Positions 1 through 19,000 of a DNA stretch of 23,678 bases are shown here, piece after piece. The position numbers and the translations under genes are program-made. Each line of letters opens with the position of its first letter. Position 1 is the stretch's first letter. The notes beneath the pieces were generated by a model. It saw only the letters and a program-made list of their open reading frames with translations. It was not told where the DNA came from and did not search any database. The stretch comes from Octopus sinensis (Eukaryota), in NCBI RefSeq assembly GCF_006345805.1, contig NW_021836555.1, forward strand, positions 1 to 23,678, written 5' to 3'.

Positions 1-192
1 ATGGTAATATTGTTGAATAAAATATTTTAGGAAATTGCAAAATTCAGAGCTGCTCGTATTGAATATAGCAATTTATATATGGAAGAGTGTAGATTAATCA
101 ATTATTCTAATTAAAAATTACATTTGAATTATCTTTTAAAAATGGCTTACCCAAAAGTATATTAATTTTAACAGCGTGGTTACTCACACTTT

Positions 193-340
193 GTGATGTC
201 TGGGTTTAAGGGTTACGTCAGAAATATTAACGAATACAATCAAATTAAGGAAACGTTAATCGGGATATTCCCGGAGGATATGAATGCTCGAAGCAAACAC
301 CGGTTGGTCAAAAAGGCTTCCAATTTTTGTCAAAAATGTC
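193..340 (+). pseudogene. N-terminal fragment of a Ginger/Gypsy-like integrase (transposase) gene
   Basis: GYVRNINEYNQIKETL...RLVKKASNF aligns by eye with the N-termini at 1143 (CFVKNISEYHTIVNIL...KLTKKSTKF) and 2247 (CFVQDQIEYNELKKIL...RLIKKAESS); truncated before the zinc finger. Confidence 0.7.
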
Positions 341-376
341 TGAAGAATCGTCAGCAGAAACATCATTTAATTTCGA

Positions 377-643
377 GTTAGGGTTACGTTAGGGTTTGAG
401 TTAAGGTTAGGGTTAGATTTTGAATATTTATGTTGTCACTCTGCCAACGTTAGGGTTTGGGTTAAGGTTAGGGTTTGATTTTGAATATTTATGTTGTCAC
501 TTGCCAACGTTAGGGTTTGGGTTAAGGTTAGGGTTAGATTTTGAATATATTTATGTTGTCACTTGCCAACGTTAGGGTTAGATTTTGAATATATTTATGT
601 TGTCACTTGCCAACGTTAGGGTTTGGGTTAAGGTTAGAGTTAA
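377..643 (+). repeat. ~60-bp tandem repeat (about 4.5 units, one shortened) containing TTAGGG-like motifs
   Basis: Unit GTTAGGGTTTGGGTTAAGGTTAGGGTTAGATTTTGAATATTTATGTTGTCACTTGCCAAC repeats with small indels. Confidence 0.9.
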
Positions 644-885
644 AGATGTTACAAACTTGGAAAAAAATTTGATGTAAATTATAATTTGCTAATGTTGCAA
701 TTTATATTATCAAAAATAAAAATAATTCACATTATAATTTGCTAATGTTGTAAATAATTTTACTATTTTAAAGCAAGCATGGTTCAAATATAAAACATCA
801 TTTTCTCAAAAATTTAAAGTTCAATCATTAGTTTGTATCGTTTGCCTTTATATTATTTGGCCTTTTAGTAAATATTTGCTATGTA

Positions 886-945
886 GTTGCCATGGAAACA
901 CGTAAAGGCCAGGTTGCCCATAGGGGTCTGATCACCCATGTGACA
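886..945. mobile_element. Putative right terminal inverted repeat of a Ginger-like element
   Basis: GC-richer block ending ...CCCATGTGACA (reverse complement starts TGTCAC), like the TGTC termini at 973 and 23151. It lies downstream of the integrase fragment at 193; the partner TIR is not seen. Confidence 0.4.
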
Positions 946-972
946 TATATAATATATAAAATCTATCTAATA

Positions 973-2168
973 TGTCGCGTCCCATGGTGGTTACGCATCC
1001 CATGCTGGCTACATGTCACCTGTCAATCAATCATTTTTACGAGGTCATTGGCTGTCAGATGTCATAATTAATGTGTGGTTTAATCATTCGTTACTCGTGT
1101 GGGCATATTTAATATTTTTAGCGTTATTATTCAATTTTCAACATGTCCTCTTTAAAATGTTTTCCCCTGTATATGTAATAATAGGTTTTGTAAAAAATAT
1201 CTCAGAATATCATACTATAGTCAATATTTTAAATGGCCAACCTGTACAGACATCTTCAAGACAAATAAAATATAAATTAACTAAAAAATCCACTAAATTT
1301 ATTGTCATTGATGAATGCTTATACCTCAAAGACGAAAGATTTCAAAAGCACAAACTAGTTATATGCATGGATAATGAGAGTGAGATGCAAACTATTGCAG
1401 ATTCTATTCACCGGAATAGCCATTCTGGAATTCGTAAACTGCAACAGGAATGTTTACACTCTTATTTTACAATAAAGCGTAAAATTATCGAACGAGTCGT
1501 CAAAGAGTGCTCAATATGCAAGTTTTCCATTCCACTTAAAGTATAAAATAAAAAACTTATATAGCAGGTTTCAGATTCTAAGTACCATGTGATTGCCAAA
1601 AGACCAAATGAACGATTCAAAGAAAGTGAGTGTTTGGATGATTTTTATCATGTATCATCAGAGGATATGGATGTAGAAAATATTTTAGATGTTTCAGGTA
1701 AATTTTGAATAACATATGCTAGACAACTTGATGCTAGTGATTTTATATTGAATTTTTTTCCACCTAATTTAAATTCACCATATTTTAAACGCATGAATAA
1801 AAAAATGAATGTTCATCAATCGAAATACGATTTTTCAATTGGGAGCGGAGTATTTTAGTGAATAATTGTTAGGTTAGAGTTCTAAAGGATTTTGGGACAA
1901 ATCCTTCCCTAAGGCTAAACCGATTTGAATCCCCATATGGAGAACCTGCTGAAGTTGTTCAAATTTTGTCAAACAATCGACTAGAGGTCTATTTTATTAT
2001 TATTTTATTTAACAGATTAAAACAAGTTCCGGGAAGTCTAAAATAGTTAATATGAATCAAGTTAAAAAATTAATTATTAAATTTGACAGTCACCATGACA
2101 GGCATTATTATTTATTGACAGGTGACATGTAACCACCATGGGATGGGTAGCTCGTGTGGGACGCGACA
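973..2168 (+). mobile_element. Internally deleted Ginger2/TDD-like DNA transposon with both ends
   Basis: Imperfect ~55-bp TIRs (TGTCGCGTCCCA...CATCCCATG...TACATGTCACCTGTCAAT at 973-1027; reverse complement at 2114-2168), TGT...ACA termini, identical 5-bp flanks TAATA at 968-972 and 2169-2173, and an integrase-like gene inside. Confidence 0.88.
1143..2075 (+). pseudogene. Intron-containing Ginger-like integrase gene lacking the DDE core
   Basis: ATG at 1143. Candidate introns at 1159-1184, 1541-1567, 1698-1722, 1850-1872 and 1987-2015. The spliced product has an H2C2 zinc finger (HRNSHSG...CSIC) and a Gypsy-integrase-like C-terminus (FSIGSG-VRVLKD...YGEPAEVVQIL). The core after RPNERF is missing and there is one frameshift near 1723. 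Confidence 0.8.
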
Positions 2169-2246
2169 TAATATAATTTAAGCAGCGTACCAGAATCATA
2201 TAACATTTTTAATCCCGTTTTACGCTTACTTCGTTTTGTTGAAACC

Positions 2247-3370
2247 ATGGCACAATCAAATCAAAGATGCTTCGTTCAAGATCAGATTGAATATAACGAA
2301 TTAAAGAAAATCCTCGAAGGGGAGATTCCACAGATAAACGACAGATTCCGCAAACGAAGGCTAATTAAGAAAGCTGAATCTTCTGTGCTTATTCAGGAGC
2401 ACATATATCTAACGGATGCAAACATCAAGAAACTACATGGATGATACTGAACAGATGAAAATGCTTACCGAACAAATTCAAGAGATTAATCATTGTGGGC
2501 ACAACGCACTGGAAAATCTCTGCAAAGAACGATTTTTTATTATTAAAAGAGAAATCATTCGTGACGTTGTTACAAAATGTGATGTTTGCCGTTTTTCTAC
2601 ACCACTTAAACAATCTGATTCTGAGTTTTATGTTATTGCCGATAGACCTAACAGGAGATTTCAAATCGACTTAATAGATCCTAAAAGGTACCTATTTTAA
2701 TGAAGTTATTTAATAGATTTAAGAATAATGATTCTTTTACGTGGTTATTAACAGTAATTGATGTGTATAATCTGACAAAACATCATTCGACAGGTGCTAT
2801 AAATAAAAGTATAATATTGAAACTCCATTTATGAGATATCGTGGAATACCTGGATTTAATCAAGTCGTTAATTATTCTCAAGTTGGTGACAACAGAGACG
2901 ATAGTTGGATTCAAAATTTAAAATGTTTTCAGATGTTTTAGATACTAATGAAGAACCAGAAGTCGGTACAGTAATTTTGGAGAAAAATGAATCAATAGAT
3001 TTGCCAAGTAATGTTTTATTTATAAATCATACTAGACGAGGAACAAGAAAAATCTTTTGATTTTAATTTAGTACCGATAAATTTAGATTCTCGTTATTTC
3101 AAAAGAATGAACAAAAGAATGTATGTTCATCGTTCTAAGTACGATCTTGAAGTAGGAGATAATTATACATTATTTTTTTACTTATAAAGACAAGAATTCT
3201 GAAGGATTATGGGACAAATCCATCTCTCAGACTAGAGAAATTTGAAAGTTCATATTCTTCGCCTGTGAAAATTATTGAAAAATTATCTAATAATTTTGTC
3301 ATGATATATAACAGTGAAGGATTTCATATAAAAATACACTCTCAAAGATTAAAAAAGATGATAAAATTTT
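2247..3370 (+). pseudogene. Second, divergent Ginger-like integrase pseudogene
   Basis: NHCGH...CDVC zinc finger, RFQIDLID, intron 2688-2716, then FTWLLTVIDVY fused to NLTKHHSTG (core deleted). The C-terminus YFKRMNKRMYVHRSKYDLEVGD...KDYGTNPSLRL is homologous to 1780-1930. Contains frameshifts. Confidence 0.8.
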
Positions 3371-3479
3371 TCGTATTTAAAAAAAATAAAAACATGTCTA
3401 ACTAATCGGTAATTAGATAAGCAAGGCACGCTAACACACAGTAACTAGCACGTCATTTATTTGTTAAACAAATCCTATT

Positions 3480-3940
3480 CTTAACGCTAACACCAATGAT
3501 TTCATAACCCAATAAATCCCGAACACTATACCAAGAATCTTCCTAAACTAATCCCTAACCATATCAAATCTCTAAACTTATTCTATTCCCTAACTCTGGC
3601 CAGTCTCTATCCCTGACCATATCTGAGCCATATCCAACCCGAAATCAGATCCCTAACACTAATTCCTATCTCTATCCCAATGTCTGTCCTTAGCCCTATT
3701 CTTATTGCCAAACTTAAATGTATTTCCGACCCTAACTTTACTATTTTTCAATGTTTTTAAATTTTCGATCATTTAAAATATTTATAAGATAATAAGGATC
3801 TCTAACTTTAACACTAATTCCTATCCCTATTCCAAAGTCTGTTTTTAGCCCTATTCTTATTGTCAAACTTAAATGTATTTCCGACCCTAACTTTACTATT
3901 TTTTAATGTTTTTAAATTTTCAATCATTTAAAATATTTAT
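3480..3940 (+). repeat. Degenerate (CCCTAA)n-like hexamer array with a ~155-bp-period duplication (about 3654-3786 and 3809-3940)
   Basis: 6-nt periodic CCCTAA/CCTATC/CTAAAC variants; TAACACTAATTCCTAT...CATTTAAAATATTTAT occurs twice. Confidence 0.7.
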
Positions 3941-4099
3941 TCGGTAGTTTCATCCTTTCGAAAGCTCAAAAGGTACTCTTCCCTCATAAATCGGTTCTAC
4001 TTGGTGCCGGTCTCAGTCGAAACCAAACATTTATTGATAAAAAAGAAACTAATTAACTAAGTAATTTTTCTAATTCCAGAGCCTTCGAAGTGAGCATAA

Positions 4100-4980
4100 T
4101 TTCATCTTGTAGTTTCATCCTATCGGCGTGGTTTGCAGCCGAAGTAAGGTTCGCAGCGGAAGAATCGATCCTCGCTTTGAGAAGGTATCCACAACGGTAA
4201 CATCCCATACGAGGGCTATTGTCATCCCGTCAGGCTTTTTGCCGTCTCCCCGATCGAGTCCGACCGGATCGAGGAGGCACGAATGGCCCGTCGATTCGAG
4301 ACCGGCCTTCACGATTTTATTGAGGACCTTGTGTCTGTGTTCCCTGCCTGCGCTCGTCTTGCAGGAAAGTGGGTGCAGTCCCTTTTCGTCAACGCCTCGC
4401 CCCATCTGCAGCGGTGTTTTGTGCAAACATCCAGGCCGAGTCGGTGAGCGACTCCGATGGGTATAGCAGCATCATCTAGCAACGTCCCGATACTGGAGAA
4501 AGGGAGAGCATTCAGCCAGCTGCCAGAGTGAGGGGCGGATGCCGCACGAAGGCATACCAGGCGGTGTTGGTCAAGGTTTGCAAAGAGCTCAGACACACGC
4601 GCTCGGCATGCGATAGTGTCCCAGGTACGTTGGGAGGAGAAATCTCCAGGCCTCTCAGAAAAGGAGCGATCCCAGGTAGTAAGCCAATCCGACAAAGCAC
4701 CGTTCAGGCAAGATTCGAAAGGTTTGAGTAGGATCTCCAAGGCCAAGTTGTTGCACATCGAAATGGAGGATAGATATGCCAGGAGTATCAAAGCACTTGC
4801 AGTTGCCTTAGACAAAGATACACAGCTCAGGTGGAAATGGGCATCACAGAGGATGCAGTGGATCCCCCGTTTGCGGGGGTTTGACACAAGTCACGAGTCG
4901 TGACTCACGACTGACATACTGTCGGGGAGCGAGTGAACTGTTCAGGTTTCTTCAGAGTTCGAGTTTCTTCTGAGTTCGTT
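4100..4980 (-). mobile_element. CRE-like non-LTR retrotransposon remnant A (partial PHD finger fused to the RLE region, RT absent)
   Basis: IHCILCDAHFHLSC (PHD) joined to SQRTWD...HSGSWLNALP...CRW...HPLSC...RH...KPDG...LVWDVTVVDT, the CCHC plus PD-(D/E)xK-type region of RLE LINEs. Confidence 0.8.
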
Positions 4981-5206
4981 TTATAAATTGCCGTCGTAGA
5001 TAAAATATTAAACTTGTATAAAGTTTTAAACTACTTAATGAGTGCCTTCATGGATGAGGTCACTATTTGAAAATCAGATCAACAAATATTTGTAATTGAT
5101 TAAATTAAACTTAGTTAAACAAAACCAACAAAAAAGTTAAAAAAAACAAGAAATAAGAAAAGTTATTTTTTAAGTAGCCAATCTATAGTGAAGACTGGAG
5201 GATCTT

Positions 5207-5734
5207 CTAAAATATAATTTTATTTTCGTCAAAAATACCGTTTTTGTCATCTTTCTTATATTCTTTATCATTTTTGTGATCTCCGCCGCATCTTTCTTGA
5301 TCTTTTTTTTGGTTTTGAAGTGCAATTGGTTTTTTGTTGCCACTCTCTTTTGGGATTTCCGAATTCTTCATAAAAGCTGTATATGTCCGTTTTTTATTAA
5401 CGACATCTGATAAAATAATTGTTATATAAATCAAACAATGTATGTGGCAGTCATCAGTTATGATACAGTTTGGTAGTGTTATATAATTGCTTCTTGGATC
5501 ATCCCATTCACGTATAACTTGTCTCTCGATATCTATAATTTTATTCCAACGTTCGCGTCTGATGTCATCATTTATTGTATTTGAATTGTCCCATTCTCTG
5601 CACAGAGATTGTCTTGGTTCATTTCTTTGTCTTTGAGTCTCATTCTTGCTACTCCAGTGAATGTCTGACCTCCCATCAGTTTTACATCGACATGGAATTC
5701 TCATGCAGGTACATTTTTGTTTATCTTCAGGCAT
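5207..5734 (-). CDS. Orphan 175-aa ORF of unknown function (Cys-rich N-terminus, charged C-terminus)
   Basis: Uninterrupted ATG-to-TAG ORF in otherwise stop-rich DNA, with a possible in-frame 30-nt GT-AG intron at 5407-5436; no domain recognised. Confidence 0.4.
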   Translation of the reverse strand: MPEDKQKCTCMRIPCRCKTDGRSDIHWSSKNETQRQRNEPRQSLCREWDNSNTINDDIRRERWNKIIDIERQVIREWDDPRSNYITLPNCIITDDCHIHCLIYITIILSDVVNKKRTYTAFMKNSEIPKESGNKKPIALQNQKKDQERCGGDHKNDKEYKKDDKNGIFDENKIIF

Positions 5735-6099
5735 ATTTGATCGTTAACGTGTAAATAACATCGACTGTATTCATAGTCGATTTGGGACGTTTCGGCTTAA
5801 TAAAATTAGAAAATCAAAAAAATTTACAGCATTGACGCGTAATTTATTATTACAATAGTAAGAAAATATATCTTATTACTAATATTTGTTAAATATATTA
5901 TTAGTAAAAAAAGAATCCCGAAACAGTACTTCTTTTGCATAACACAAATTCTTGAGTTTAGCCATTTCCTCAATGGCTTGTAAGAGACTATTGACTGAGT
6001 CTTTAAATAACAAATTCAAATTACCTTATTTTGTGAAATCGCAGTAGTTCTTTTATATTTAGACTACCGAAAACTAGCAAATTTTGCACGAAAACTTGT

Positions 6100-7210
6100 C
6101 TTGCTGTCTGGTCTCATTGATGGATATGTGCTATGTGTCAAAAATACAAAAATGTTTTTAAAATTCTAGGAGTGGACATGTCCAGTGCGTTTGACACTGT
6201 CAATAGGAAATCGTTGTTGAACGTTTTTGGGAGTTTTCTTGAAGATAGCACTAGGCTTGTCCGTTTCCTACTTTCTAATACCGAATTAACTGTACGGGTT
6301 GAAAACGAGTTATCAAATCCTTTAGGGACAACAATTGGAACACCTCAAGAGGACTCTCTATCTCCGGTTCTATTCATTGTATATCTGGAGGCAGCACTGA
6401 GAGATCTCAGAACAAAGTACGAAGGATCGATGCCGATGGAAATTATATATGCAGACGACAAAGACTTTGTGTCAGAAAATGATCAGGAACTTGCATCTGT
6501 TTTGGAGAAAATTCCGGACAAATTTGAGAGATGGTGTACATTAATCAAGAAAAGACTGAACACGTAAAAATCACAGAGGAATCGAAATATATTGATGGAA
6601 GTTGGAGGAAAAAAAGAAATTGAGATCATTACTTGGTGATAGTGAGGACATGATGTACCGGAGAGTTTGGGCCTCTGCAATGTACAAGAAAATTAAAAAG
6701 ATATGGAATCATCAAAATTTCAAAAATAAACCTCAAGCTAAAGCTTTACAACGCATATATAAAACTAGTACTCATGTACAACTTAGGTACCTGGGATGTC
6801 ATAGAGGCAGAGTTAGATAAAATGGACACGTTTCACCAAAAACAACTACGCAATCTACTGGGCCTAGGATGGTCAAAAAAGATTCCTAGCAGAAAATTAT
6901 ACGCTATGACACGATCGGTGTTAATAAGCATCGATATTATAGAATCAAGATGGAGGGTGTTTTGACACGTACTTAGGATGGACGTAAACACACCAGCAAA
7001 CACGATAATAAATGATTACTTTAACAATAACAACAAAACAGCGTTCAGAGGAAGGCCCAGGGTCACTCTCCCTGTTGCACTAAACAAGGATCTCAACGGA
7101 ATTGGAAGAAAACTTGGATGTGCTGACGACCTTGAAGACCTACGAGTATATGCTCAAAGCAGACCTTGATGGAGACGCCTGGTGAACAAGATTTCTGAAC
7201 GTGTGGCACA
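6100..7210 (+). mobile_element. 3' fragment of a non-LTR retrotransposon RT gene (RTE-group-like), frameshifted
   Basis: RT motifs VDMSSAFD, GTPQEDSLSPVLF, YADD, then LRSLLGDSED, YNLGTW...QLRNLLG, RW...HVLRM and RGRPRVTL. Confidence 0.8.
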
Positions 7211-7611
7211 AACGGGACCTTAGCTAATTTAACATTTCTTTGGTTCTGTGTACGTGCTATTAATAATAATCCATGACTGCATGTGTCGAGCAATCGAACA
7301 GTTTACACTAGATCCTGGCTCGATTCCAGAGTGATTATGTACTGGGGTCACTTATTTGATCCCTAAAGTAGATAACCCTTCCGCTCCGACAGATTATTGT
7401 CTAATAACCTGTATGCCCAACCTGTACAAATTGATGACCAAGGTGGTGGCTACTGAGGTCAGAAATTTCGTGGAGGTGAATGGGATTCTGTCCGAGAACC
7501 AGTTAGGTACTCGGCGGGATTGCCAGGAAGCTAAGGACCAGGCACTGATCAACAAATGCCTCGCGAGAGCCCACAGAAACTTTCTGCATTTTGATTAAAA
7601 TGAACAACGCG

Positions 7612-7846
7612 AATGTCCTCGACATTCATGATGAGGTCCATTAAAACCTTCAAGGCAAAAATCTCACGTATTAAGAATATCCTTGATGAAAACGACAGCG
7701 AGAATATTAACAATGATGAACTCCCAATTATTCGCGATAAAGAAATTCAATTCATCCTATGTTTTTCTCTTTAAAATTAAATGCATATATCATTATCGAC
7801 CATGAATCAAAATTAAAGCTATTATCATATTTGACTTTGACAGAAT
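7612..7846 (+). repeat. Dispersed 235-bp repeat, copy 1 (copy 2 at 13016-13249)
   Basis: AATGTCCTCGACATTCATG...GACTTTGACAGAAT is near-identical at both sites. Confidence 0.9.
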
Positions 7847-7861
7847 AAGTCGAGGACATCG

Positions 7862-7939
7862 TATTGCCAATTTGAAGTTTGTGTGCACACACAGACAGAC
7901 AGACAGACAGACACACACCATACCATTTTATTATTAAGA
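7862..7939 (-). mobile_element. Helitron-like 5' end with (GTCT)n microsatellite
   Basis: Minus strand begins TCTTAATAATAAAA exactly where the RT reading frame stops (7940), followed by (GTCT)n. This resembles non-autonomous Helitron 5' ends; no CTRR 3' end was seen. Confidence 0.4.
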
Positions 7940-8496
7940 CGAAGGCAACTTGAGCTTTCGCAGACACTCAACGAGGTAGGCATGATCAACCGAGTCATAT
8001 GCTTTCTTCACATCCACCCACATCGACGAGCTGCCGAGCTAGTGGTTTATAAAATTTGTTGCAACTGTGATGGACAGGTGGAACGTGCATCTACACTACA
8101 ACAAATGCGATATAGGCGAAGTTAAGCTAGAGAGGGGCATTTTACAGGGCGACAGCATGTCGCCACTGCAGTTTGTCCTCTGCCTAGAACCGCTGAGTAA
8201 AGTCCTCACTGCCTAATTCGAACAAATGTTGATCGAACATGAAGGAGGGTGTTTTAGCACCAACCATCTCATGTTCATAGACGACATTAAGCTGTTCGCT
8301 CGGTCTTCAGAGATCCTGACGTTTAGTCAGCGAAAGGCGCTGGACTGCACCTTCTGAAGGTCTACAGTGCCAGAGAAGAGGAGGAAGAAGGCGAGGAGGT
8401 GCGTGGAGTTCCACTCTCTGCTCACTTCAAAGGCTCTGGACTTAGTTAGAAAAATGACTTAGTTAATTAGTTTCTTTTTTAATGCAAACAATACAT

Positions 8497-9030
8497 TGCC
8501 AGATGTCATATTTATTGTAGTTTTTTATCATGCGTCACTCTTAGGGGAGATATTTAATATTTTTTAGCGTTATTCAGAATTTTCAACATGTCCTCTCTAA
8601 AATATTTTGCCTATATAAAATATCAATTTATCAGAATATCAATTTATCGTGAGTATCTTAAATGAGAACATGTACAGAAATCCCAATGAAAATAAAAAAT
8701 ATAACTAAAAATTCTACCAAATTTATTGTTATCGATGACCGCTGATACTTCAAAGACAAAAGATTTCAAAAGCACAAGCTAGTTATTTGCATTGATAATG
8801 AGAGTGAAATGAAAAAATATTGCAGATTCTATTCATCGAAATATACTTTCTGGATCTTTACACTCTGTAAAAAATTTATTAACTTGTTTACACTCTTATT
8901 TTACAGTAAAGCGGAAAATTAAGAACGATTTATCAAAGAATGCTCAATTTGCAATTTTTCTATAGCACTTAAAGTATAAAATTAATAAATTTAATTTAGG
9001 TTTCCGATTTTAATTCTATGTGATTCCCAA
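8497..9030 (+). pseudogene. Degenerate 5' copy of the Ginger-like element at 973-2168
   Basis: Clear nucleotide similarity to about 1053-1600 (e.g. AAAGATTTCAAAAGCACAA, GATAATGAGAGTGA, CACTTAAAGTATAAAAT); same intron position (8974-8999). Confidence 0.85.
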
Positions 9031-9149
9031 ATTTGATAATTAATTTTGTTGCTATTCATAATTAGTTTAGTTGTTTATTGTTTTGTTATATAATCACAGT
9101 TTTTGAATTTTTATTTTCTGTTTAAAATTGGTTAAATATATTGTCGATT

Positions 9150-9900
9150 TCCAGAAGTTCTTATAATATAGGATATTCTGTAATTGAATTGGTTTTATTT
9201 TGACAATAATTTAATCTTTTTTTCACTTTCAACATTTATATCTTTTCATTTTTTACTATTTAATCTCTCAACTCTACTATTTTATTTTTTATGGATATTT
9301 GATTGGATTGAGGTCTGGTAATTTACTTGGCCATTTTAAAACATTAATTTTTTTCCTTATTAACCATTCAGTCGCTGCGATGCTGGAATGTCAATTGTTG
9401 GTCAAATTCAATTTATCGACCGAACGAAACAGGCATTGTTTCAGGATTTTCAATATTTGAGCATATTCATTATTCCATCTATTACAAATAAATACCCAAC
9501 AGCATGATACTTCAATGAAAAACTTCCTCCCCAGTGGTTTATGATAGGTATGGTGAATTTTTGGTTATTTTCCTGATCGAATTTACGCCAAATCGAAGGC
9601 GACAAGTTCAGTCCTAAAAGTTGTAGTTTTAAATTCTTCCGATCATAAAATATTGTTTATGAATTCATTTTCTTTATTTAAAAGATATTTGGAATATTTA
9701 ATTTGTGTAGAGGTGTGTATTTTTTTAATAACGGAACAAAATTATCATTATATTTGAAAAAAACTTGTCATCCTCCATATCATTGACAAAATTATTTTGA
9801 TTAACTTTGTATGTAGAGGGGTTTTTTACTCGATTACGTTTTTCTGATTTTAAAAAAACACGTAAAACTTTGACTAAATGAAATAAAAAAAAATTAACGA
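9150..9900 (-). pseudogene. Tc1-family transposase fragment
   Basis: Minus-strand translation gives IWRK...HWGGS...LFVIDGIMN...INVLKWPSKLPDLNPI (cf. the Tc1 WPxxSPDLNPIE motif), with many stops and frameshifts; boundaries approximate. Confidence 0.75.
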
Positions 9901-10132
9901 GAACAAAAGAAATTATTTAATCATTTAAATAAGAAGAGTAACCCCATGTCATCGCTATTAAATGAGGATTGCATTTTAATTTCAAATCATCGTTGTCAAG
10001 TCTGCATGGTTTCTTTGAGTATTGAATTGCTCACAGTAGACTGTCGGCAAATCCATAGCCAGGCCCCCTTTAATCACCTCAAATTGTTTAAATCCCAATT
10101 CTTTTATTTTTGAAGATTTATTCAATAATATA

Positions 10133-10350
10133 CAGTGGGTCAAATTAGTCTTGGGACACTTGTTTATTTTTAATAAAATTTTATTTTCAATAACATAACT
10201 GTTTTTATTTAAGTTCTCCCAAAAGTGTAAAAGCACCCCTAGTTTTTGTTACATTATTTAAAAAATTACAAAGTTAGTTCAAATTATAGAAAATTTTTTA
10301 TTTATATTCAAGAGCTAGAATATCAAGTGCCAATTAGTTTTAGGACAAGT
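10133..10350 (+). mobile_element. Solo Tc1-like terminal repeat with IR/DR structure
   Basis: TA followed by CAGTGGGTCAAATTAGTCTTGGGACAC, with a similar inner repeat GTGCCAATTAGTTTTAGGACAA about 190 bp downstream. Confidence 0.5.
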
Positions 10351-10549
10351 AAGGTGCGAAACTGTGCCTACCGAATATGTTTGAGAATCCAGTTAATCGC
10401 TGACACGAAATGTCACCATTTCTTACTTATATTTGAGGCGATTTTTTAGCCTACAAAATAAAAAATTTAACATAAAATTTAACTTTATGAACCTAAAAAC
10501 TAAAAAAATTAACCCCAAAATTTAACTTAATAACCAAAAACTAAAAATG

Positions 10550-11095
10550 TTTTCCGGAAGCTTTCCGCTAAGCTTCTCTGTCATGCCATAGTCCCTTGTT
10601 TGTCTCCAAACTTTCTGTCCGCTCAACTTGGTGTCGGCGTTTCCAATGGTTGCGAGGCCGCAGCTTATTCTGATCGTGACCTGTTAGAATCTTCCGAGGA
10701 GTTTATCATGGTCAAACTGGACGTATCTAATGCTTTTAACTCCATCAGACAGGATCACTTACTGGAGTGCTGCCGCAAAATGGCTCCTTCCGCATACTCC
10801 CTCGTACATCTCGCTTACGCATCCCCAAGCATATTTATGTTTGACGACGTTCCGATCACCTCGTCTACTGGGGTCCAGCAAGGCGATCCCCTGGGTCTTG
10901 TGCTTTTCGCCCTAGACGTTAATGGCATCGCCCATTCTGTCCGGTCACATTTTATCATTCGGTACCTGGACGACGGCACCATTTGTAGTCCTCTTGAGGT
11001 CGTTTTCGACGACCGCCGGTTTATCCTCCTATCACTCTCGGCTATTGCCTATCTATCAACGCAAAAAAATCTGAAATCGCGAACATCGGCTTTCA
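10550..11095 (+). mobile_element. CRE-like non-LTR reverse transcriptase fragment
   Basis: QLGVGVSNGCEAA, KLDVSNAFNSI, GVQQGDPLG and YLDDG. Confidence 0.85.
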
Positions 11096-11165
11096 ACATA
11101 GTTTATTCTTTGATCATTTTAATATATGTGAATTTTAAATCATTTTAATTGCGGCAGCAGATATA

Positions 11166-12592
11166 CAGTAAAACCTCTGGTGCTCGCCACCTCTGTTACT
11201 CGCCACCTCTATTGCTCGCCACATATTTTCCAAAAAATTAAAAATTTCTAGTAAATTTTGATAAATATTCTATTGCTCGCCATTTTCTAAATCTCGCCAT
11301 TAATTTTTTAAAATATTTTTTTTGGTTAAACTATTTTTTATATTAAAATATTTCAACCATGCTAAATTCAACATGCGTAAGAGCACAAGATTGTCTTTTA
11401 ATGAAAAACGTCGCATTATTGGGTACATGGAGGAGAACAAAAATCTCACGATGGACCGTATAGCTTAAATTTTTTCTTCTGTTTTAAAGAAAAAAATATC
11501 TCGAAGGGCTGTAAACGATTTTAGACTTAGAAAAGAGAAAATACTGTCTACTGATCCTATTTTCTCCAATAAGAAGAGATTATCTAACTTAACTTATTCT
11601 GTTATTGACACCGAACTATTAACTTGGATGGAATACATTGAGCTGCAGTTGATCAGAAACAAGAAATTGATCTCTGCAAAGATTCAACAATATAATGCTG
11701 AAAACATTTATAACGCTGATGAAACTGGGATTTTTTTTACAAATCTATCCAGTCAAAAAGTGTTTGTCAGAAGGTTCGATATGGACATAAAATCCTTAAA
11801 GAACGGTTTAATTTTTATTTATTTTTTTAGATTTTCTTTGTTGCTATGCTCAAATATGACTGGGACAAACAAAAAAATTCCACTTATGATTGGAAAGTTC
11901 CAGAAACCTCGCTGCTTTAAAAATTTTAAAGTCTAAAATTTTGTCGATTACTGTCATTCACCAAAAGCATGGATGACAAGTAAAATTTTTAACGAATGGC
12001 TTTTAACATGGGATAGGCATCTAAAAAAACAAAAAATTCTTTTAGTTGTGGATCGATGCCCATCCCATAAACTTTACGCTGATTTAGAGTCAATTGAAGT
12101 TTTTTACCTACCTTCGAAGACTACAACAATTCTACAACCAATGGATCAAGGAATCATTAGATCCTTCAAAGGACATTTTAATAAACTTAAATTTGAGTTT
12201 ATGTTAGAAAAATTTGAAAATGGAGAAAATCCACTGGAAGCTCAAACATAATTAACTTTAAAAGACGGTCCTCTTTTTGCATATTTTACCTGGAAAAAAG
12301 TAACGACCAAAACAAGTACAAATTGTTTCGGACATTCAAAATGGATCGAATGTGAAAATCAACTCGAAAGACCAACTGTTGAAATTGATAATTTTTAGTT
12401 AATTTTTTCTTTTTAATTTCTTTCGATTCTCTTTGTTTCTTTGCTCAAATATGACTTGGAAGGCTCACTTAGAAAAGTATCGAAAACCGAGATGTTTTCA
12501 AAATTTATTGATTATTTCCATTGCTCGCCAAATTCTATTGCTCGCCATTTTTTCTTCGGTCCCGAAAATGGCGAGCACCAGAGGTTTTACTG
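11166..12592 (+). mobile_element. Tigger/pogo DNA transposon, defective
   Basis: Perfect 24-bp TIRs CAGTAAAACCTCTGGTGCTCGCCA (11166-11189, 12569-12592), TA on both flanks, and subterminal CTCGCCA repeats. Transposase remnants include an HTH-like start RLSFNEKRRII, YNADETG, CSNMTG, KPRCFK, WMT, LLVVD and LQPMDQGII; stops, a frameshift and a deletion. Confidence 0.95.
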
Positions 12593-12699
12593 TATGTGAA
12601 TTGATCATTTTAATTATGTTTAAAATATCATTTTTGAAGCTTTTTGTATATGTATTTTTAATAAATTTGTTGCCATTTCCAAATCCTAACTTTCAAATT

Positions 12700-13015
12700 T
12701 TGTAATAATATTTGCAATAGCGACATTATTTGGAAACCTGGATTGTTAGAATAGCTTTGGATATTCAAATTAGATATCCATTATCCGCGAATGATTCAAA
12801 AATATTTTGAATTCCGATCAGATTTTCTCAATAGTATGTAGCGGCCTTATGCCAGGAACCCCATCTTGTCAAATGAAATGGTGATGTTTCTGTCTTTGAA
12901 TATTAATTTTCTTCTATTGTTCCTGATAATTGCAGCTTGTACAGTAGCTATCATTGAATCAATTCCAATTAAGATTCTCTGAATTTCTCACAGCAATTGT
13001 ATAATAGATGAAGTT
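12700..13015 (-). pseudogene. hAT-like transposase fragment
   Basis: Minus-strand LYNCCEKFR...IDSMIATV...RRKLIF...LTRWGSWHKAATYY*ENL resembles the TRW motif region of hAT-like transposases. Confidence 0.55.
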
Positions 13016-13249
13016 AATGTCCTCGACATTCATGATGAGGTCCATTAAAACCTTCGAGGCAAAAATCTCACGTATTAAGAATATCCTTGATGAAAACGAC
13101 AGCGAGAATATTAACACTGATGAACTCCTAATTATTCGCGAGAAAGAAATTCAATTCATCCTATGTTTTTCTCTTTAAAATTAAATGCATATATCATTAT
13201 CGACATGAATCAAAATTAAAGCTATTATCATATTTGACTTTGACAGAAT
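13016..13249 (+). repeat. Dispersed 235-bp repeat, copy 2
   Basis: Near-identical to 7612-7846. Confidence 0.9.
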
Positions 13250-13264
13250 GTGCAATTACAGATT

Positions 13265-13467
13265 GCACGACTTTGAATAGAGTGTGCAATTAACAGATTT
13301 TGAAAAACAACTTTGATGTTGAAACCACATTAGCACAATCATTAACACAATTACCACCAATTGACGCACGACCTTGAATAGAGTGTGCAATTAACAGATT
13401 TTGAAAAACACTTTGATAGTTGAAACCACATTAGCATAATCATTAACACAATTTACCACCAATTGAC
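13265..13467 (+). repeat. Tandem duplication, 2 x ~101 bp
   Basis: GCACGAC(T/C)TTGAATAGAGTGTG...CCACCAATTGAC occurs twice head to tail. Confidence 0.9.
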
Positions 13468-13724: not shown

Positions 13725-13778
13725 AAACGAAACTGAAGAAAAAACGGTCAGAATAAGGTAATTAATTAAATCTTTTTT

Positions 13779-13940
13779 GCCGCCGCATCTCTGCCTGCCG
13801 CATCTCTGCCTGCCGCATCTCTGCCTGCCGCATCTCTGCCTGCCGCATCTCTGCCTGCCGCATCTCTGCCTGCCGCATCTTCGCCTACCGCATCTTCGCC
13901 TACCGCATTTCCGCCCGCCGCATCTCCCCGCATCTCCCCC
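13779..13940 (+). repeat. GC-rich 15-bp minisatellite (GCCGCATCTCTGCCT)n, about 10 units
   Basis: Read directly from the sequence; units diverge towards the right end. Confidence 0.95.
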
Positions 13941-14220
13941 AAATAAAAAAAGAAAAAAACGAAATTACAAAGAAACACGAAAAAATCAAATATAAAAAGT
14001 TAAAAAATAAAAAAAAAGAAAATAAAGCACAAAAAAAAGAAAATAAAACAAAAAAAAAGAAAATAAAACACAAAAAAAGAAAAAAAATTTAAAAAATAAA
14101 AAAAAATTAAAAAATAAAAAAAAATTAAAAAATATAAAAAATTAAAAAATAAAAAAAATTAAAAATTAAATAAAAACACAATAAAAATCAAAAAATAAAA
14201 AAAAACTAAAAAATAAAAAC
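13941..14220 (+). repeat. A-rich low-complexity tract
   Basis: Runs of AAAAAT/AAAAGAAAAT. Confidence 0.9.
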
Positions 14221-14344
14221 GGGCTATATTAGCTCCGCTAAATGATGAGGTACTTAATATAAATTTAGATTTATTAATCAAAATCCCATTAACCAACGTG
14301 CGTTGTTGTTGTTGTTTTTAAACGCTTCTCGATCTGTGTGAAAT

Positions 14345-15298
14345 ATATGACAAACTCTGAAGAAAATCGAACTATGAAAAAACCTGAACAGTTCACTCGC
14401 TCCCCGACAGTATGTCAGTCGTGCCTCGTGTCAAACCCCCGCAAACGGGGAATCCACTGCGCCCTCTGCAATGCCCATTTCCACCTGAGCTGTGTATCTT
14501 TGTCTAAGGCGACTGCAAGTGCCTTGGGCGCATGGCACTGTGCCCGCTGCCTCTTCAACTCAAAGGGCGCTGGGCCAAATCGGCGACCCTCTCGTACTAC
14601 TACCCGCCACAATCTCTCGACTGAAGAATTTATTCTTTCCCTGTCTTTGCTTCGTGGCACAAGAGACATCCCTCTCCGCATTCCCAAACAAGCCCGCCTG
14701 ACGGCCGCTTCCTGCCTCGAAAAAATTATCTCAGAAGCACTCAGTTCCGAAGAAGACCTCCCGTGGTTCCGTATCTTCCTGTTTGCTTGATTCGGCCCTC
14801 GCTCTTTGAAAACGCATTTCTCTGAAGTCCCTTCCGATGTCTTTTCTCAGCGAGACTGGGACAAAATTCTTTGCCGTCGATCTTCAACTGACTTGGACCC
14901 ACTCCTCGTCCAACACAGACTGGCTTGTTTCTGTTCCGCCTGTCAGCCATACTCAGGCTCCTGGCTGAATGTGCTCCTTTCTCCGCTTTTGGATACTGTC
15001 CTCGATAGGCATTCACTCCGTTTGGGTATCTGTAATTGCCTTGGACTCCCTGTCTGCAGACTTCACCCATGTCGTTGTGGGGATAAAGTTGACACCTTTG
15101 GGCTACATCCTCTGTCTTGTCGAATGAGCGCTGGCCGATTTCCTCGACACACTGAAATTAACAATCTAATTCACAAAGCTCTGGAAAGAGCTGGTTTCCC
15201 TTCTATTCTGGAACCGACGGGCCTTGTTTTTGAAGATGCAAAACGTCCAGACGGCTGTACGCTTTTCGCTTTTGAATCCGGGAAGCAGCTCGTTTTGG
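14345..15298 (+). mobile_element. CRE-like non-LTR remnant B (complete PHD finger plus RLE region, RT absent)
   Basis: CQSC...IHCALCNAHFHLSC...WHCARC (C4HC3) and RIPKQARLTAA, then SQRDWD...SGSWL...CRCG...HPLSC...RH...KRPDG. Confidence 0.85.
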
Positions 15299-16055: not shown

Positions 16056-19000
16056 CCAGAAATGCGGTTGGCGAAATTGTTCGAAATTTTTTAAATGTTC
16101 GAAATTTATCGAATTAATTGAAATAATTATCACGTGTTATTCATGTTTTTTTTTCTTTTGTTGTGCTTCTGCTTGTAAATTTTATTTATTTATTTATTTA
16201 CCCCCGGCCCCTTCAATTGAAGGAAGCCGGTGGCTAACAAGAACGTTAGGCCAATGTCGGACGCTCCCAAAGATCCCCGATCGTGATCCGGTGTTCCGAG
16301 GAAGTAGAAGGCGGGCCTGGACAGGAGAAAAGGTCGTTGAGGGAATAGGAAGGGGTTATTTCACCAAGACCGATTTTCATGCGATAATCGTGTAGGCCGT
16401 ATGGTGGCCACAGCGGAGACGAGCCAAGTTCACTCGGGCTTCTCTTGAGAGGGAGGATTCGATCTTATTAATTGGCGGCGGAAGGCGTCCCAGAAGCTTG
16501 TTTATTCCAAGACATCTGATTGCCCTCGTAGCCACCAGGTCGTGAATCCCCTTCTGGTTAATGTCCGGAGGGGATCGTATAAGCTTGCGGACTTTGTCCG
16601 CGAGGGTCGAAACTATTCTCCTGTTGTTAGTGGAGTGCCAGAGGAAGTAGCCAGGGTGATTTAGGGTTCGGCATTTGTCAAGAAATTGCAGCCCGAGCAT
16701 TTCAAAATGGTCACTGATTGGAAGGATTTTCGATTCCCAATGTAGGTGGTCGGTAGGTGTCGTTTTTAGACAGCCGGTAATAATTCGTAATGCTGAGTTT
16801 TGAGTTCTCTGAAGTTTTTCAAGGTTTGTATTAGATAAGCAGGAACCCCAAGCAGGGATGGCGTAGTTCATAGTTGTTCTAATAAACTGCTTGTATACAG
16901 TTTTTAGACTTTCCTTATCCTGCCCAAATGAAGTCCCCGCAATAGCTCGGAGCACATTGAGTTTTTTCTGGGATTTTCCACAGATATATGAAACATGTTT
17001 CGAGAAGGACAAACAGCAATCAAATATCAGACCCAAGATTTTGGGGGTTTTTCAACTGGGAGTGGAGTGTTTGTCTAGGAATAGTTTAGGCTCTAAGTTG
17101 AACTGACGGCGGTCAGTTGTGAATAGCGTAACAGATGATTTGGAAGGAGAAGGTTGAAGAAGATTGCATTTCAGCAGCCAGGACGAAAGAGTGTTCATGT
17201 GTTCCTGCAGAAATCCAGAAGCGGTGATTATGTTTTGGTGGCGGGAGGCAAAAATTAAGTCATCAGCGTAGGAGAGAGTAGAGTATTATTGTTCGTCGGG
17301 ATATTTGACAGATGTAAGTTAAATAAGGCAGGTGAAAGGACCGAGCCTTGGGGAACTCCCGTTAGGCAAGTATTTGTAGCGTGAGTAAGAAGACATGATT
17401 GTGGTGCGACCAAGACGCCCAGAGAGAAAGAGAGTAGCCATGACTTATTTGGTGGGGGAATTCCGTATCGGTTATTTTCCTACACAGAACGTGTCTTGAC
17501 GTTCTGTCAAATGCCTTTTCAATGTCGATGGATGCAATAATTGTTCTTTGAGGTGGCTTATGATTGTTAAAACCCATCCGCAATGAATTGTGTCAGTTTT
17601 TGAAAGATGGGTGGAAGTGGAATGCAAAGAACGAAAGCCATGTTGAGATTCAGCAAATGGGAGGAAAGGTTTTATGATGCTCAATACAACTCGCTCTCTC
17701 TGTTATTTTTGAAACCACTGAGATCAAAGAGATAGGTCGAAAAGAGGAGGGGTCAGATCACGATTTGGCTTTGGGATAGGGATGATGGTAGATTTTCTTC
17801 TTCCAAGCATAGGAACCAGACCATGGTTGATCGAGTATTCGATTAATTGGTCAGAGCCAGAAAGCCATTAGGACCCAGATTTTTTAGGTGGTGGATGGCA
17901 AGGCCATCAGGACCTCTGGCGTTAGAATTCCGCGAGTTAACACAAGTTGCCTGGTAAATGATTCTGGGATGTTAATATAGTCAGTAGAATTGTCATTTGA
18001 CTTATAATGTGATTTTCTTACGAAACGAGATCCTTTGGGGTAGGAAGGTGACTGATTTTTGCATAATGGCGAATTAAGATGTTGGCTTGATCCTGGAAAG
18101 ATAGGACAGATTTTTGGTCGAGATACCGGTGGCATGTGAGAGGGGACATGTTTGCCTCGTGTGAATTTTCTTGAGGGTTCTCCAGAAAGCACGGGATCCA
18201 GTATTGGGGTTATTGAAGTGATAAAATCATTCCATTCGTCAGTTTTATGTTTCTTGATTAATTCGTCAATTTGTTTGTTGATTTCTGCTAGAGATTCTCA
18301 TTTCCATTGATAGAAGTCGTCGATTTGATCCTCCTTCGTTTTTTGAATAGTTCAATGATAGGTGGGGGGAAGTGGAGGCCGTGATTCGGATGAAGCCGCG
18401 GGAATAAATTTTTTGTCCGCAGAAAGAAGTGTACTAGTAAAGAAAGCAACGGCAGCGTCAAATGATTGAATGGAGGAGCAAGAAAAATTACTGAATATAC
18501 GTTCAGTTTCACTCCTGAACGAGTCCCATTTCCCACGTTTGTAGTTAATGTAGGTCTTCGTAATTCTCTTCTTACAGGGTGATGGTTTATTTGATTAGAA
18601 TAGGATTGTGGTCCGTTGGTAGGTCGTACAGAACTGTCCATTTGGCGTCGAGGGCGATGTTTGGGGAACATAAGGTAATGTCAGGAGAAGTGTTTGAATC
18701 TCCAGGTCGCATTGCACAGCGGGTGTGTAGAAGAGGGTTGTTTAGAGTGATCAATTCTTCCGCATCCGTTGTGATTGGCTGGCCACGTTTGTCAGTTTTG
18801 TTTGTGGATAACCAGAGAGGATGGTGGGCGTTGAAGTCGCCACATAGAATACAGTTTTCAATTGAAAAAAGAGGCAGTAAGTTCGGTGTATAATTGGGAG
18901 CACATGACGAAATCGGGGGATATATGTGTTAACAACAGAGTAACATATCTTGTTAATGTTAATTTGAATAGATGAAATTTCGGTAAATCGATCATTAGTT

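Follow-up and report, generated by a model that had tools for sequence, protein, structure and literature searches.

An unplaced contig of the Octopus sinensis assembly carries, on its forward strand, a transposase gene interrupted by five very short segments. The contig (NCBI RefSeq assembly GCF_006345805.1, NW_021836555.1, positions 1 to 23,678), one of 13,516 that make up the 2.72-Gb assembly, was analysed over its entire 23.7 kb and is called here the window. The segments run from GT to AG at 1159-1184, 1541-1567, 1698-1722, 1850-1872 and 1987-2015 (26, 27, 25, 23 and 29 nucleotides, nt), exactly where a preliminary description, made from the letters alone, had put them. They are very probably spliceosomal micro-introns, predicted here from sequence, in an internally deleted copy of a 1.85-kb DNA transposon with terminal inverted repeats (TIRs). 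The copy most likely belongs to a dicyemid-like parasite that was assembled together with the mollusc, and not to the mollusc itself. Observed directly are the GT-AG segments, an open and colinear reading frame, TIRs and a target-site duplication (TSD) together with empty sites, GT-AG segments of the same kind (24-31 nt) in HSP70 genes, and the restriction of the elements to small contigs. A reading of raw sequence without tools picked out the shortest class of animal introns, a class that standard callers of open reading frames (ORFs) and genes miss.

The GT and AG ends mean little by themselves, of course, because 43 GT...AG candidates of 20-34 nt lie within the 924 nt between 1143 and 2066. 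The case rests instead on reading frame and homology. Here, the starting point is the family to which the element belongs (family A), whose full-length copies hold a transposase gene with eight introns of 26, 27, 29, 28, 27, 25, 24 and 29 nt, in that order (median 27 nt). The five window segments are introns 1, 2, 6, 7 and 8 of this gene; the remaining three, an addition to the five described earlier, were lost from the window copy through a 560-nt deletion near 1616-1618. The borders are GT...AG at all eight introns in copies L003, L006 and L008, and at all five in the window copy. The five segments are 78.5% A+T, against 68.6% in the exons. With eight introns in 1.29 kb (6.2 per kb of coding sequence), the intron density resembles that of host genes.

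In the window, the gene model opens with exon 1 (1143-1158), which encodes MSSLK plus one further nucleotide. Intron 1 (1159-1184, 26 nt, phase 1, GT...AG) is kept in all aligned copies and contains TAA, TAA and TAG in frame; its site is uninterrupted in family B, a second family discussed below, and in the database protein P0001. Exon 2 (1185-1540) encodes the H2C2 zinc-binding domain (Pfam Integrase_H2C2, E 1.5e-5). Intron 2 (1541-1567, 27 nt, phase 0) was also recovered in L003 by protein-guided spliced alignment, and its position (P0001 residue 122) is filled by introns of 21-24 nt in five other loci. A truncated exon 3 (1568-1615) holds the start of the DDE core; the full exon matches positions 2-45 of Pfam rve. 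The deletion junction follows at 1616-1622, made up of the TTC microhomology at 1616-1618 and the final 4 nt of intron 5. The deletion took the rest of exon 3, introns 3 and 4, exons 4 and 5 and most of intron 5.

Downstream of the junction, exon 6 (1623-1697) encodes a variable linker, and intron 6 (1698-1722, phase 1) is kept as a 25-nt intron in 21 of 21 genomic copies with exact flanks. Exon 7 (1723-1849) carries a private 1-nt deletion between 1729 and 1730. Intron 7 (1850-1872, phase 0) is 23 nt long in the window, one T having been lost relative to the 24 nt of the five full-length copies aligned; it too was recovered by guided alignment. Eight more loci, from other families, have introns of 24-34 nt and of different sequence at its site (P0001 residue 402, same phase). 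Exon 8 (1873-1986) encodes a conserved C-terminal module, KDFGTNPSLRL...ILSNNR, colinear with nine relatives. Intron 8 (1987-2015, 29 nt, phase 0) is also found in L051 (27 nt) and is absent from family B and P0001. Alignment shows exon 9 (2016-2066) to be truncated by a second deletion, of 68 nt near 2066, by which the stop codon was lost.

Removal of the segments restores a transposase reading frame. Excising 1159-1184 and 1541-1567 from the window copy yields MSSLKCFVKN... and ...PLKVSDSKYHVIA, as had been written in the preliminary description, which also proposed that family members be aligned. The full-length copies in such an alignment show the eight GT-AG segments, and once they are removed L003 has a frame of 429 codons (1,290 nt) that is broken once, by a stop that arose from CGA (CGA>TGA). 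The spliced 429-amino-acid (aa) conceptual product can be aligned over its full length with nine uninterrupted proteins from the database (401-458 aa), and junctions 1-4, 7 and 8 are free of insertions and deletions against these nine. Integrase profiles are matched in exon order: Integrase_H2C2 in exon 2, rve 2-45 in exon 3, rve 52-102 in exon 4 and rve_3 17-64 in exon 5 (Pfam). Intron 4 interrupts HPQSQ|GIVERFNQT, the motif around the catalytic E. A custom protein-guided spliced aligner, with P0001 as its only guide, placed introns 2, 3, 4, 7 and 8 of L003 at exactly the coordinates derived by hand (five of eight). The three not recovered are intron 1, which lies at the N-terminal edge, and introns 5 and 6, within an unalignable linker.

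The segment at 1698-1722 had been called the weakest of the five on the ground that it needs a nearby frameshift. That frameshift is real. It proves to be a private 1-nt deletion (GG>G, 1729/1730) of the lineage made up of the window copy and one other copy, L002; 21 other genomic copies read ACAACTTGGATGC at this site.

Diverged copies (76-90% identity) retain GT and AG at the same sites, and their intron lengths shift by amounts that are not multiples of 3. The interiors of the introns are less conserved than the exons in three of four comparisons (82 versus 90%, 84 versus 89%, 68 versus 82%). One diverged copy lies in the window itself, where a third, degenerate family-A-like element (8497-9031, forward strand, 76% identity) has an intron-2 homologue at 8974-8999 that keeps GT...AG around a different interior, as first described.

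The element that holds this gene can be delimited to the nucleotide. The window copy spans 973-2168 (1,196 nt, forward strand) in alignment with L007, L006, L008, L003 and L010, and is a non-autonomous derivative of a transposon that is 1,846 nt long in full-length copies L007, L006, L008 and L003, with termini TGTCG...CGACA. The left TIR (973-1072, about 100 nt, forward strand) pairs at about 77% with the right TIR (2069-2168, reverse strand). TAATA flanks the element at 968-972 and again at 2169-2173. The insertion point lies about 24 nt inside the left end of a family-B element, and four family-B copies elsewhere (L022 at 1493-1497, L023, L024 and L021) have a single TAATA at the uninterrupted site. 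These empty sites prove the ends at 973 and 2168, together with the 5-bp duplication. A 5-nt direct repeat flanks all five complete family-A copies (TAATA in three, TATTA in two; TAWTA).

At least 150 matching pieces of family A, 97-100% identical, are present in the genome. Among these is L002 (contig C8594), a twin of the window copy, which is 99.7% identical over 1,102 nt and carries the same 560-nt deletion; its left end reads TGACG instead of TGTCG. The sequences flanking the twins differ on the left and on the right, and each twin has a TAATA of its own. One deletion derivative at two loci with different flanks must have been mobilised, and this requires a working transposase supplied in trans. 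Together with the 97-100% identity of the copies, it implies that a working, and therefore spliced, transposase existed in the recent past.

The "paralog at 2247" of the preliminary description is indeed related and uninterrupted at introns 1 and 2. It is not, however, a further copy of the same family, but a member of family B, 46.5% identical in protein (192/413), that hosts the family-A insertion. This family-B element (2174-3420, with its first ~23 nt at 945-967, forward strand) is split by the insertion, internally deleted and frameshifted. It has micro-introns of its own on the same strand. Intron b1 (2688-2716, 29 nt, phase 2) follows DLIDLKR and is absent from family A and P0001; its position (P0001 residue 148) is filled in 10 other loci of the B-group clade (at residue 147 in L037). 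It is GT-AG in the window and GC-AG in L022 (2021-2049), and the guided aligner mis-called it in L022 for this reason. Introns b3 (2904-2932, 29 nt; compare L022 2591-2616) and b4 (3008-3035, 28 nt) lie in the linker region and are placed by the logic of the frame only. At 3163-3189 lies the homologue of family-A intron 7 (b5; compare L022 2957-2984), its 5' GT mutated to TT in the window copy.

Families A and B offer a direct comparison of intron positions. Family B has contiguous coding sequence at the sites of family-A introns 1, 2, 3 and 8. It has an intron 10 nt from family-A intron 4 in a different phase (residue 239 versus 235), and one that coincides in position and phase with family-A intron 7. 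P0001, 46-47% identical to both, is as distant from A and B as they are from each other; in the tree, A and B are sisters and P0001 comes next (UFBoot/SH-aLRT 94/83 and 100/100).

Relatives were sought by a HMMER search of the full library with the 149-aa first exon of family B. It returned 113 proteins at E <= 1e-3, of which 28, of 380-620 aa, match from the N-terminus. The contigs of those looked up are 1.5-2.5 kb long; P0001 itself comes from a 1,475-nt contig, under the source name "Gag-Pol polyprotein [Dictyocoela roeselum]", a microsporidian record. Five relatives scanned against Pfam have only H2C2 and rve domains (Integrase_H2C2, zf-H2C2, rve, rve_3).

Twenty-four further loci were then fetched from the assembly, and the guided aligner was run on 25 loci with a maximum intron of 40 nt. 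A ceiling of 80 nt produced spurious "introns" of 67-80 nt that bridged indels and duplications; the 40-nt ceiling removed these. In alignable regions, introns of 20-34 nt were called at P0001 residues 46, 47, 122, 138, 148, 168, 182, 235, 239, 281, 286, 402 and 440, about 13 positions in all. The same positions recur in several loci, where the introns vary in length and sequence: residue 402 (phase 0) in nine loci (24-34 nt), residue 148 (phase 2) in nine (147, phase 0, in L037) and residue 122 in six. The 25 loci and 14 database proteins were placed in a quick tree with SH-aLRT support only, where several copies are partial and absences are in part missing data. Resident clade I (17 loci, sister to P0001) has introns at 47, 122, 148, 168, 182, 235, 239, 281, 402 and 440. 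Resident clade II (six loci near P0028) has them at 46 and 138; to it is added L048, in which none was called. A third resident lineage, L031, has a single intron at 286, which is 24 nt long, in frame and free of stops, so that spliced and unspliced RNA would both be open. L031 (contig C12602, 531-1787) is an intact 418-aa transposase ORF of a distant family, in which the intron appears as an insertion of eight residues relative to five relatives.

The preliminary description held that DNA transposons of this genome are densely colonised by such introns. This is borne out for the integrase-type superfamily, where family A has eight introns, family B at least five and others one to four. It was not demonstrated for a pogo/Tigger-like element at 11166-12595 of the window, a degenerate element with TIRs of about 25 nt (CAGTAAAACCTCTGGTGCTCGCC...), in which no clean micro-intron could be established. 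A 25-nt GT-AG candidate there (11806-11830) does not restore the frame, and a TAA at 11934-11936 looks like a plain nonsense change.

Not one of the 14 outgroup proteins is interrupted, and no intron position is common to any two of the three resident lineages. Repeated gain inside this genome is the more parsimonious history, and from these sequences it is likely that the resident lineages gained micro-introns repeatedly after the superfamily had settled in the parasite lineage. On balance, then, the superfamily is probably a live record of the gain of ultra-short introns de novo, in which three separately settled lineages acquired some 13 positions that they do not share.

One might instead suppose that the introns are real and ancestral to the transposon superfamily, that they were lost in the relatives and in other resident families, and that nothing was gained here. 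Residue 402 is common to all three sub-clades of the large resident clade, and hence old within it. The nearest named relative, P0001, is from a microsporidian record, and microsporidia are known for intron loss. The database relatives, moreover, were called as ORFs, a procedure that favours uninterrupted genes and under-samples interrupted ones; this weakens the view that the superfamily was intronless to begin with. Against these points, loss alone would need an ancestor with about 13 introns in 1.3 kb, their complete loss in the 14 outgroup proteins, and a non-overlapping retention in each resident lineage, clade I, clade II and L031 having no position in common. Positions 235 in A and 239 in B, 10 nt apart and in different phases, also speak against a common origin. 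An ancestral origin is accordingly held to be rather unlikely.

The consequences of gain, if it is accepted, are considerable. A genome famous for shrinking its introns would also be creating new ones at a high rate, and young transposon families could be used to date and dissect the process. Transposase genes are normally intron-poor. Eight introns of host style in one family, with lineage-specific positions elsewhere, would be a rare and datable test bed for the origin of new introns, in a lineage where introns are thought only to shrink.

Whose genome is this? The preliminary description supposed that the host splices micro-introns. Genes that suggest such splicing do exist, but the "host" is not the mollusc. 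All listed matches to family A (150), to the LINE (long interspersed nuclear element) of the window (41) and to the integrase superfamily (100, out of 3,824 first-look candidates) are on contigs numbered 126 or higher; none of them is on a chromosome-scale contig. The chromosome-scale contigs are the ones that carry tandem units of molluscan haemocyanin (35 of 37 PF14830 hits on C5 and C28), and there HSP70 exon matches are about 90-1,000 nt apart, as estimated from match coordinates. Three HSP70 paralogs, of cytosolic, BiP and mitochondrial type, are instead on small contigs (C8703, C8845, C9082) and have 14 GT-AG introns (34, 26, 26; 28, 27; 25, 24, 31, 26, 27, 65, 26, 25, 29 nt). Their range is 24-65 nt, 12 of the 14 are 24-31 nt long, and excision restores conserved HSP70 sequence. 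The intron lengths of host genes had been named earlier as a check; in these three paralogs introns of similar size are present, with a median of 26.5 nt.

The contig restriction and the HSP70 micro-introns together indicate that the window belongs to a second, micro-intron animal co-assembled with the mollusc. C8845 carries both a micro-intron HSP70 gene and a family-A copy. The contigs of this animal are numbered from about 126 to 13449 (for example C1794, 1.29 Mb; C7755, 854 kb; C8703, 552 kb), and they hold a set of HSP70 genes belonging to this animal, LINEs, and integrase-type transposon loci in their thousands. Genes on the small contigs use the standard code with TAG and TAA stops, and repeats are of the TTAGGG type. 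To be read through, the BiP-like HSP70 (L018, C8845, about position 1000) requires a shift of 1 nt within an A-run (DSK|AMQKLRRE); an intron does not account for it, and the likely cause is an error of assembly in the homopolymer. Contigs of a second animal, up to at least 1.3 Mb, in a chromosome-level mollusc assembly matter for the annotation of either genome, as well as for any attempt to infer gene transfer between host and parasite.

From host type and literature, the second animal is identified as a dicyemid with good, if incomplete, confidence. Introns below 30 bp are, in the account of PMC13644364, reported among animals only in dicyemids and myxobolids, with a minimal GTa...AG signal. 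Dicyema sp. is described with 4.9-5.3 introns per gene and a median intron length of 27 bp, and the mixing of dicyemid data with cephalopod DNA as routine (PMC6543705). For D. japonicum, PMC6736024 gives 36.7% GC and 49% repeats, rich in LINEs.

The organism might, of course, be some other animal or protist with introns below 30 nt, for instance a myxobolid myxozoan, or a symbiont that has yet to be described; this is thought quite improbable. The hosts of myxobolids are fish and annelids; the large genome here is that of a mollusc, and dicyemids are the classic renal parasites of cephalopods. Myxobolid introns are of the same size (PMC13644364). Nevertheless, cross-contamination between cephalopod and dicyemid data is documented (PMC6543705), and the GC content and repeat load fit those given for D. 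japonicum (PMC6736024).

It is very improbable that the window is mollusc DNA, into which the elements were transferred horizontally from a parasite with introns that the mollusc cannot splice. The window consists of transposons without a housekeeping gene and is an unplaced contig of a mollusc assembly, as such a transfer would allow; yet the absence of every listed match from chromosome-scale contigs argues against it, as does the presence of the same families beside micro-intron HSP70 genes on contigs of 0.3-1.3 Mb (C8845, C8703, C7755).

Scarcely credible, finally, is the idea that the segments are not spliceosomal at all, being decay insertions in dead pseudogenes or DNA-eliminated internal eliminated sequences (IESs) of ciliate type: most copies are frameshifted, short AT-rich GT...AG strings are as common as was said, and ciliate IESs have a similar size, but eight removals restore a 429-codon frame colinear with relatives, the same kind of segment interrupts conserved housekeeping genes, the borders in host genes and transposons are GT/AG and not TA/TA, without flanking TA (for example HSP70 ACG|GTGTGT...TTTTAG|GCC), and the standard code and TTAGGG-type repeats lead to the rejection of a ciliate host.

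The preferred reading, that of micro-introns in the transposons of a dicyemid-like parasite, suggests the following course. The superfamily would have settled in the parasite lineage and acquired its introns there. Splicing of the transposase pre-mRNA would fall to the U2-type spliceosome of the parasite, for which a minimal GTa...AG signal is described in dicyemids (PMC13644364); unspliced RNA would meet a stop inside intron 1. Cut-and-paste transposition at TAWTA sites would then be the work of the spliced 429-aa H2C2+DDE protein, which would mobilise deletion derivatives, the window copy among them, as well.

Hints at the level of transcripts were looked for in contigs of eight public runs, none of which is on record as RNA; no listed joint in these contigs matched an intron. 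One 420-nt contig of run X2 spans L007 2544-2994 with 37 gap letters, and its binned depths fit its length only if 24 nt are missing at 2793-2816. With AG before both ends, the gap can equally be written as 2795-2818, which is intron 6. The same contig retains intron 7 (its first G reading A) and a shortened intron 5. None of 21 assembled copies has lost intron 6. The contig would therefore come either from a spliced transcript or from a copy that lost the intron precisely, and both readings fit an intron. Two other candidates were rejected, an X10 contig (organism B) in which GAT replaces 42 nt around intron 7, which is not a clean excision, and an X5 contig with a 27-nt gap that bin arithmetic places inside exon 2, unrelated to introns. 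Family-A-like pieces (85-99% identity) occur in runs X3, X5 and X10 (organism B) and X6-X9 (organism C), 362 of them in X7, where 35 are at least 99% alike. Other samples therefore contain the family or the organism that bears it.

Several observations weigh against the preferred reading. None of the seven aligned family-A copies is fully intact; L003 is the best, with its one stop, and the other six have private frameshifts. Introns 5 and 6 lie in a linker of variable length, where the borders are supported by frame continuity alone and lie beyond a homology check. The fourth comparison of intron and exon divergence gave equal values (90 versus 90%), and the measure is a weak discriminator. 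In all contigs of six of the eight runs, and in the remaining contigs of X2, any intron covered is retained; otherwise these contigs are uninformative. The X2 gap is deduced from binned depth with no listed joint, in a run labelled only by guess ("DNA?"); the contig could therefore be DNA, from a copy that has lost the intron precisely. To these must be added the two matters raised above, that the relatives are ORF predictions, among which interrupted genes are under-represented, and that the dicyemid identity rests on host type and literature rather than on a marker gene.

Other features of the window include short direct repeats at intron borders. GTTTT opens both intron 1 and the exon that follows it (1159-1190), and GTTAG|GTTAG lies across the 3' border of intron 7 (1850-1880). 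Two introns of the mitochondrial-type HSP70 (L019, about 1690-1775 and 1860-1890) likewise open with the same GTT(TTT) as the next exon. Such repeats could be a trace of intron origin, or chance in AT-rich DNA.

Arrays of ~60-nt and ~155-nt units built on degenerate TTAGGG/CCCTAA motifs (386-667 and 3480-3940) flank the nested transposons, the two sides facing opposite ways. At 13752-13941, about 12 tandem units of 15 nt (GCCGCATCTCTGCCT) adjoin an A-rich tract. Two GC-rich retroelement fragments with a PHD-like Cys/His motif contain a 190-nt inverted pair (4789-4985 and 14344-14526, 91-92% identical). The LINE family at 16300-17400 has about 30 copies that are 98-99% identical over 1.1 kb, all on small contigs, a sign that it retrotransposed in the same organism very recently. 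Scans of the window for Rfam families and for tRNAs gave no hits.

How does this element compare with known systems? The preliminary description named Ginger, and this is reasonable in the sense of Ginger2/TDD: by the features described in PMC2836005, the element fits a Ginger2/TDD-like transposon. Its termini (TGTCG...CGACA) follow the TGTNR...YNACA of that group, its TIRs of about 100 nt (77%) fall inside the 45-297 bp range, and its transposase has H2C2 and DDE domains without reverse transcriptase (RT) or RNase H, according to Pfam scans of the exons and five relatives. A 5-bp TSD is shared with TDD-4 and TDD-5, whereas animal Ginger2 is described with a 4-bp TSD in an RTATAY target; the target here, TAWTA in all five copies, is likewise AT-rich and palindromic, but is a different word. 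Its length (1.85 kb, against 2.75-6.7 kb) and the conserved C-terminal module KDFD/G.N...K...F.S.Y...ILSNNR...VKK also set the element apart from the Ginger2/TDD elements so described. The 429-aa product is without YPYY; F-E-S-P-Y / S-F-Y stands in the C-terminal module where GPY/F would lie.

Ginger1, for its part, is described in PMC2836005 as having 1-4 canonical introns, CCGG/CCGT 4-bp TSDs, YPYY and GPY/F motifs, and OTU or Ulp1 domains. The element resembles it in being an integrase-type DNA transposon whose transposase gene is cut by GT-AG introns, and differs in having eight of them, all below 30 nt. The 5-bp TAWTA TSD, the lack of YPYY and the lack of OTU, Ulp1 or any other extra domain in the 429 aa exclude Ginger1. 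A fragment of a long terminal repeat retrotransposon was rejected from the TIRs, the TSD and the absence of RT. The uninterrupted relatives (P0001 and Logan/JGI P0005-P0018, about 400-470 aa) share the H2C2+rve architecture and the C-terminal module; they differ from the resident families in being single uninterrupted ORFs. A compact 1.85-kb family of this kind, its 5-bp TSD proven and its candidate loci numbering in the thousands (3,824 at first look), enlarges the repertoire of integrase-type DNA transposons.

The introns themselves are like those of dicyemids and myxobolids, which are described as GT...AG, frequently beginning with GTA, 20-34 nt long (median ~27), roughly 5-6 per gene and without a strong polypyrimidine tract (PMC13644364; PMC6543705). 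Those in the transposase are 24-29 nt (median 27), and those of the HSP70 host genes have a median of 26.5 nt. The published dicyemid introns lie in host genes and, to judge by the title of Ogino 2010 (cited in PMC6543705), are regarded as ancestral introns that have become shorter at conserved positions. Those reported here differ in lying in a transposase gene, at positions that differ between sister transposon families. Literature searches confined to Dicyema transposable elements and to transposases, introns and intron gain yielded no account of micro-introns in transposon genes, although the supplementary repeat tables of PMC6736024 may list these elements. Micro-introns in the likely organism are already known. 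What is new is an intron density like that of host genes in a transposase gene, lineage-specific positions that point to gain, and the genome of a second animal within a mollusc assembly.

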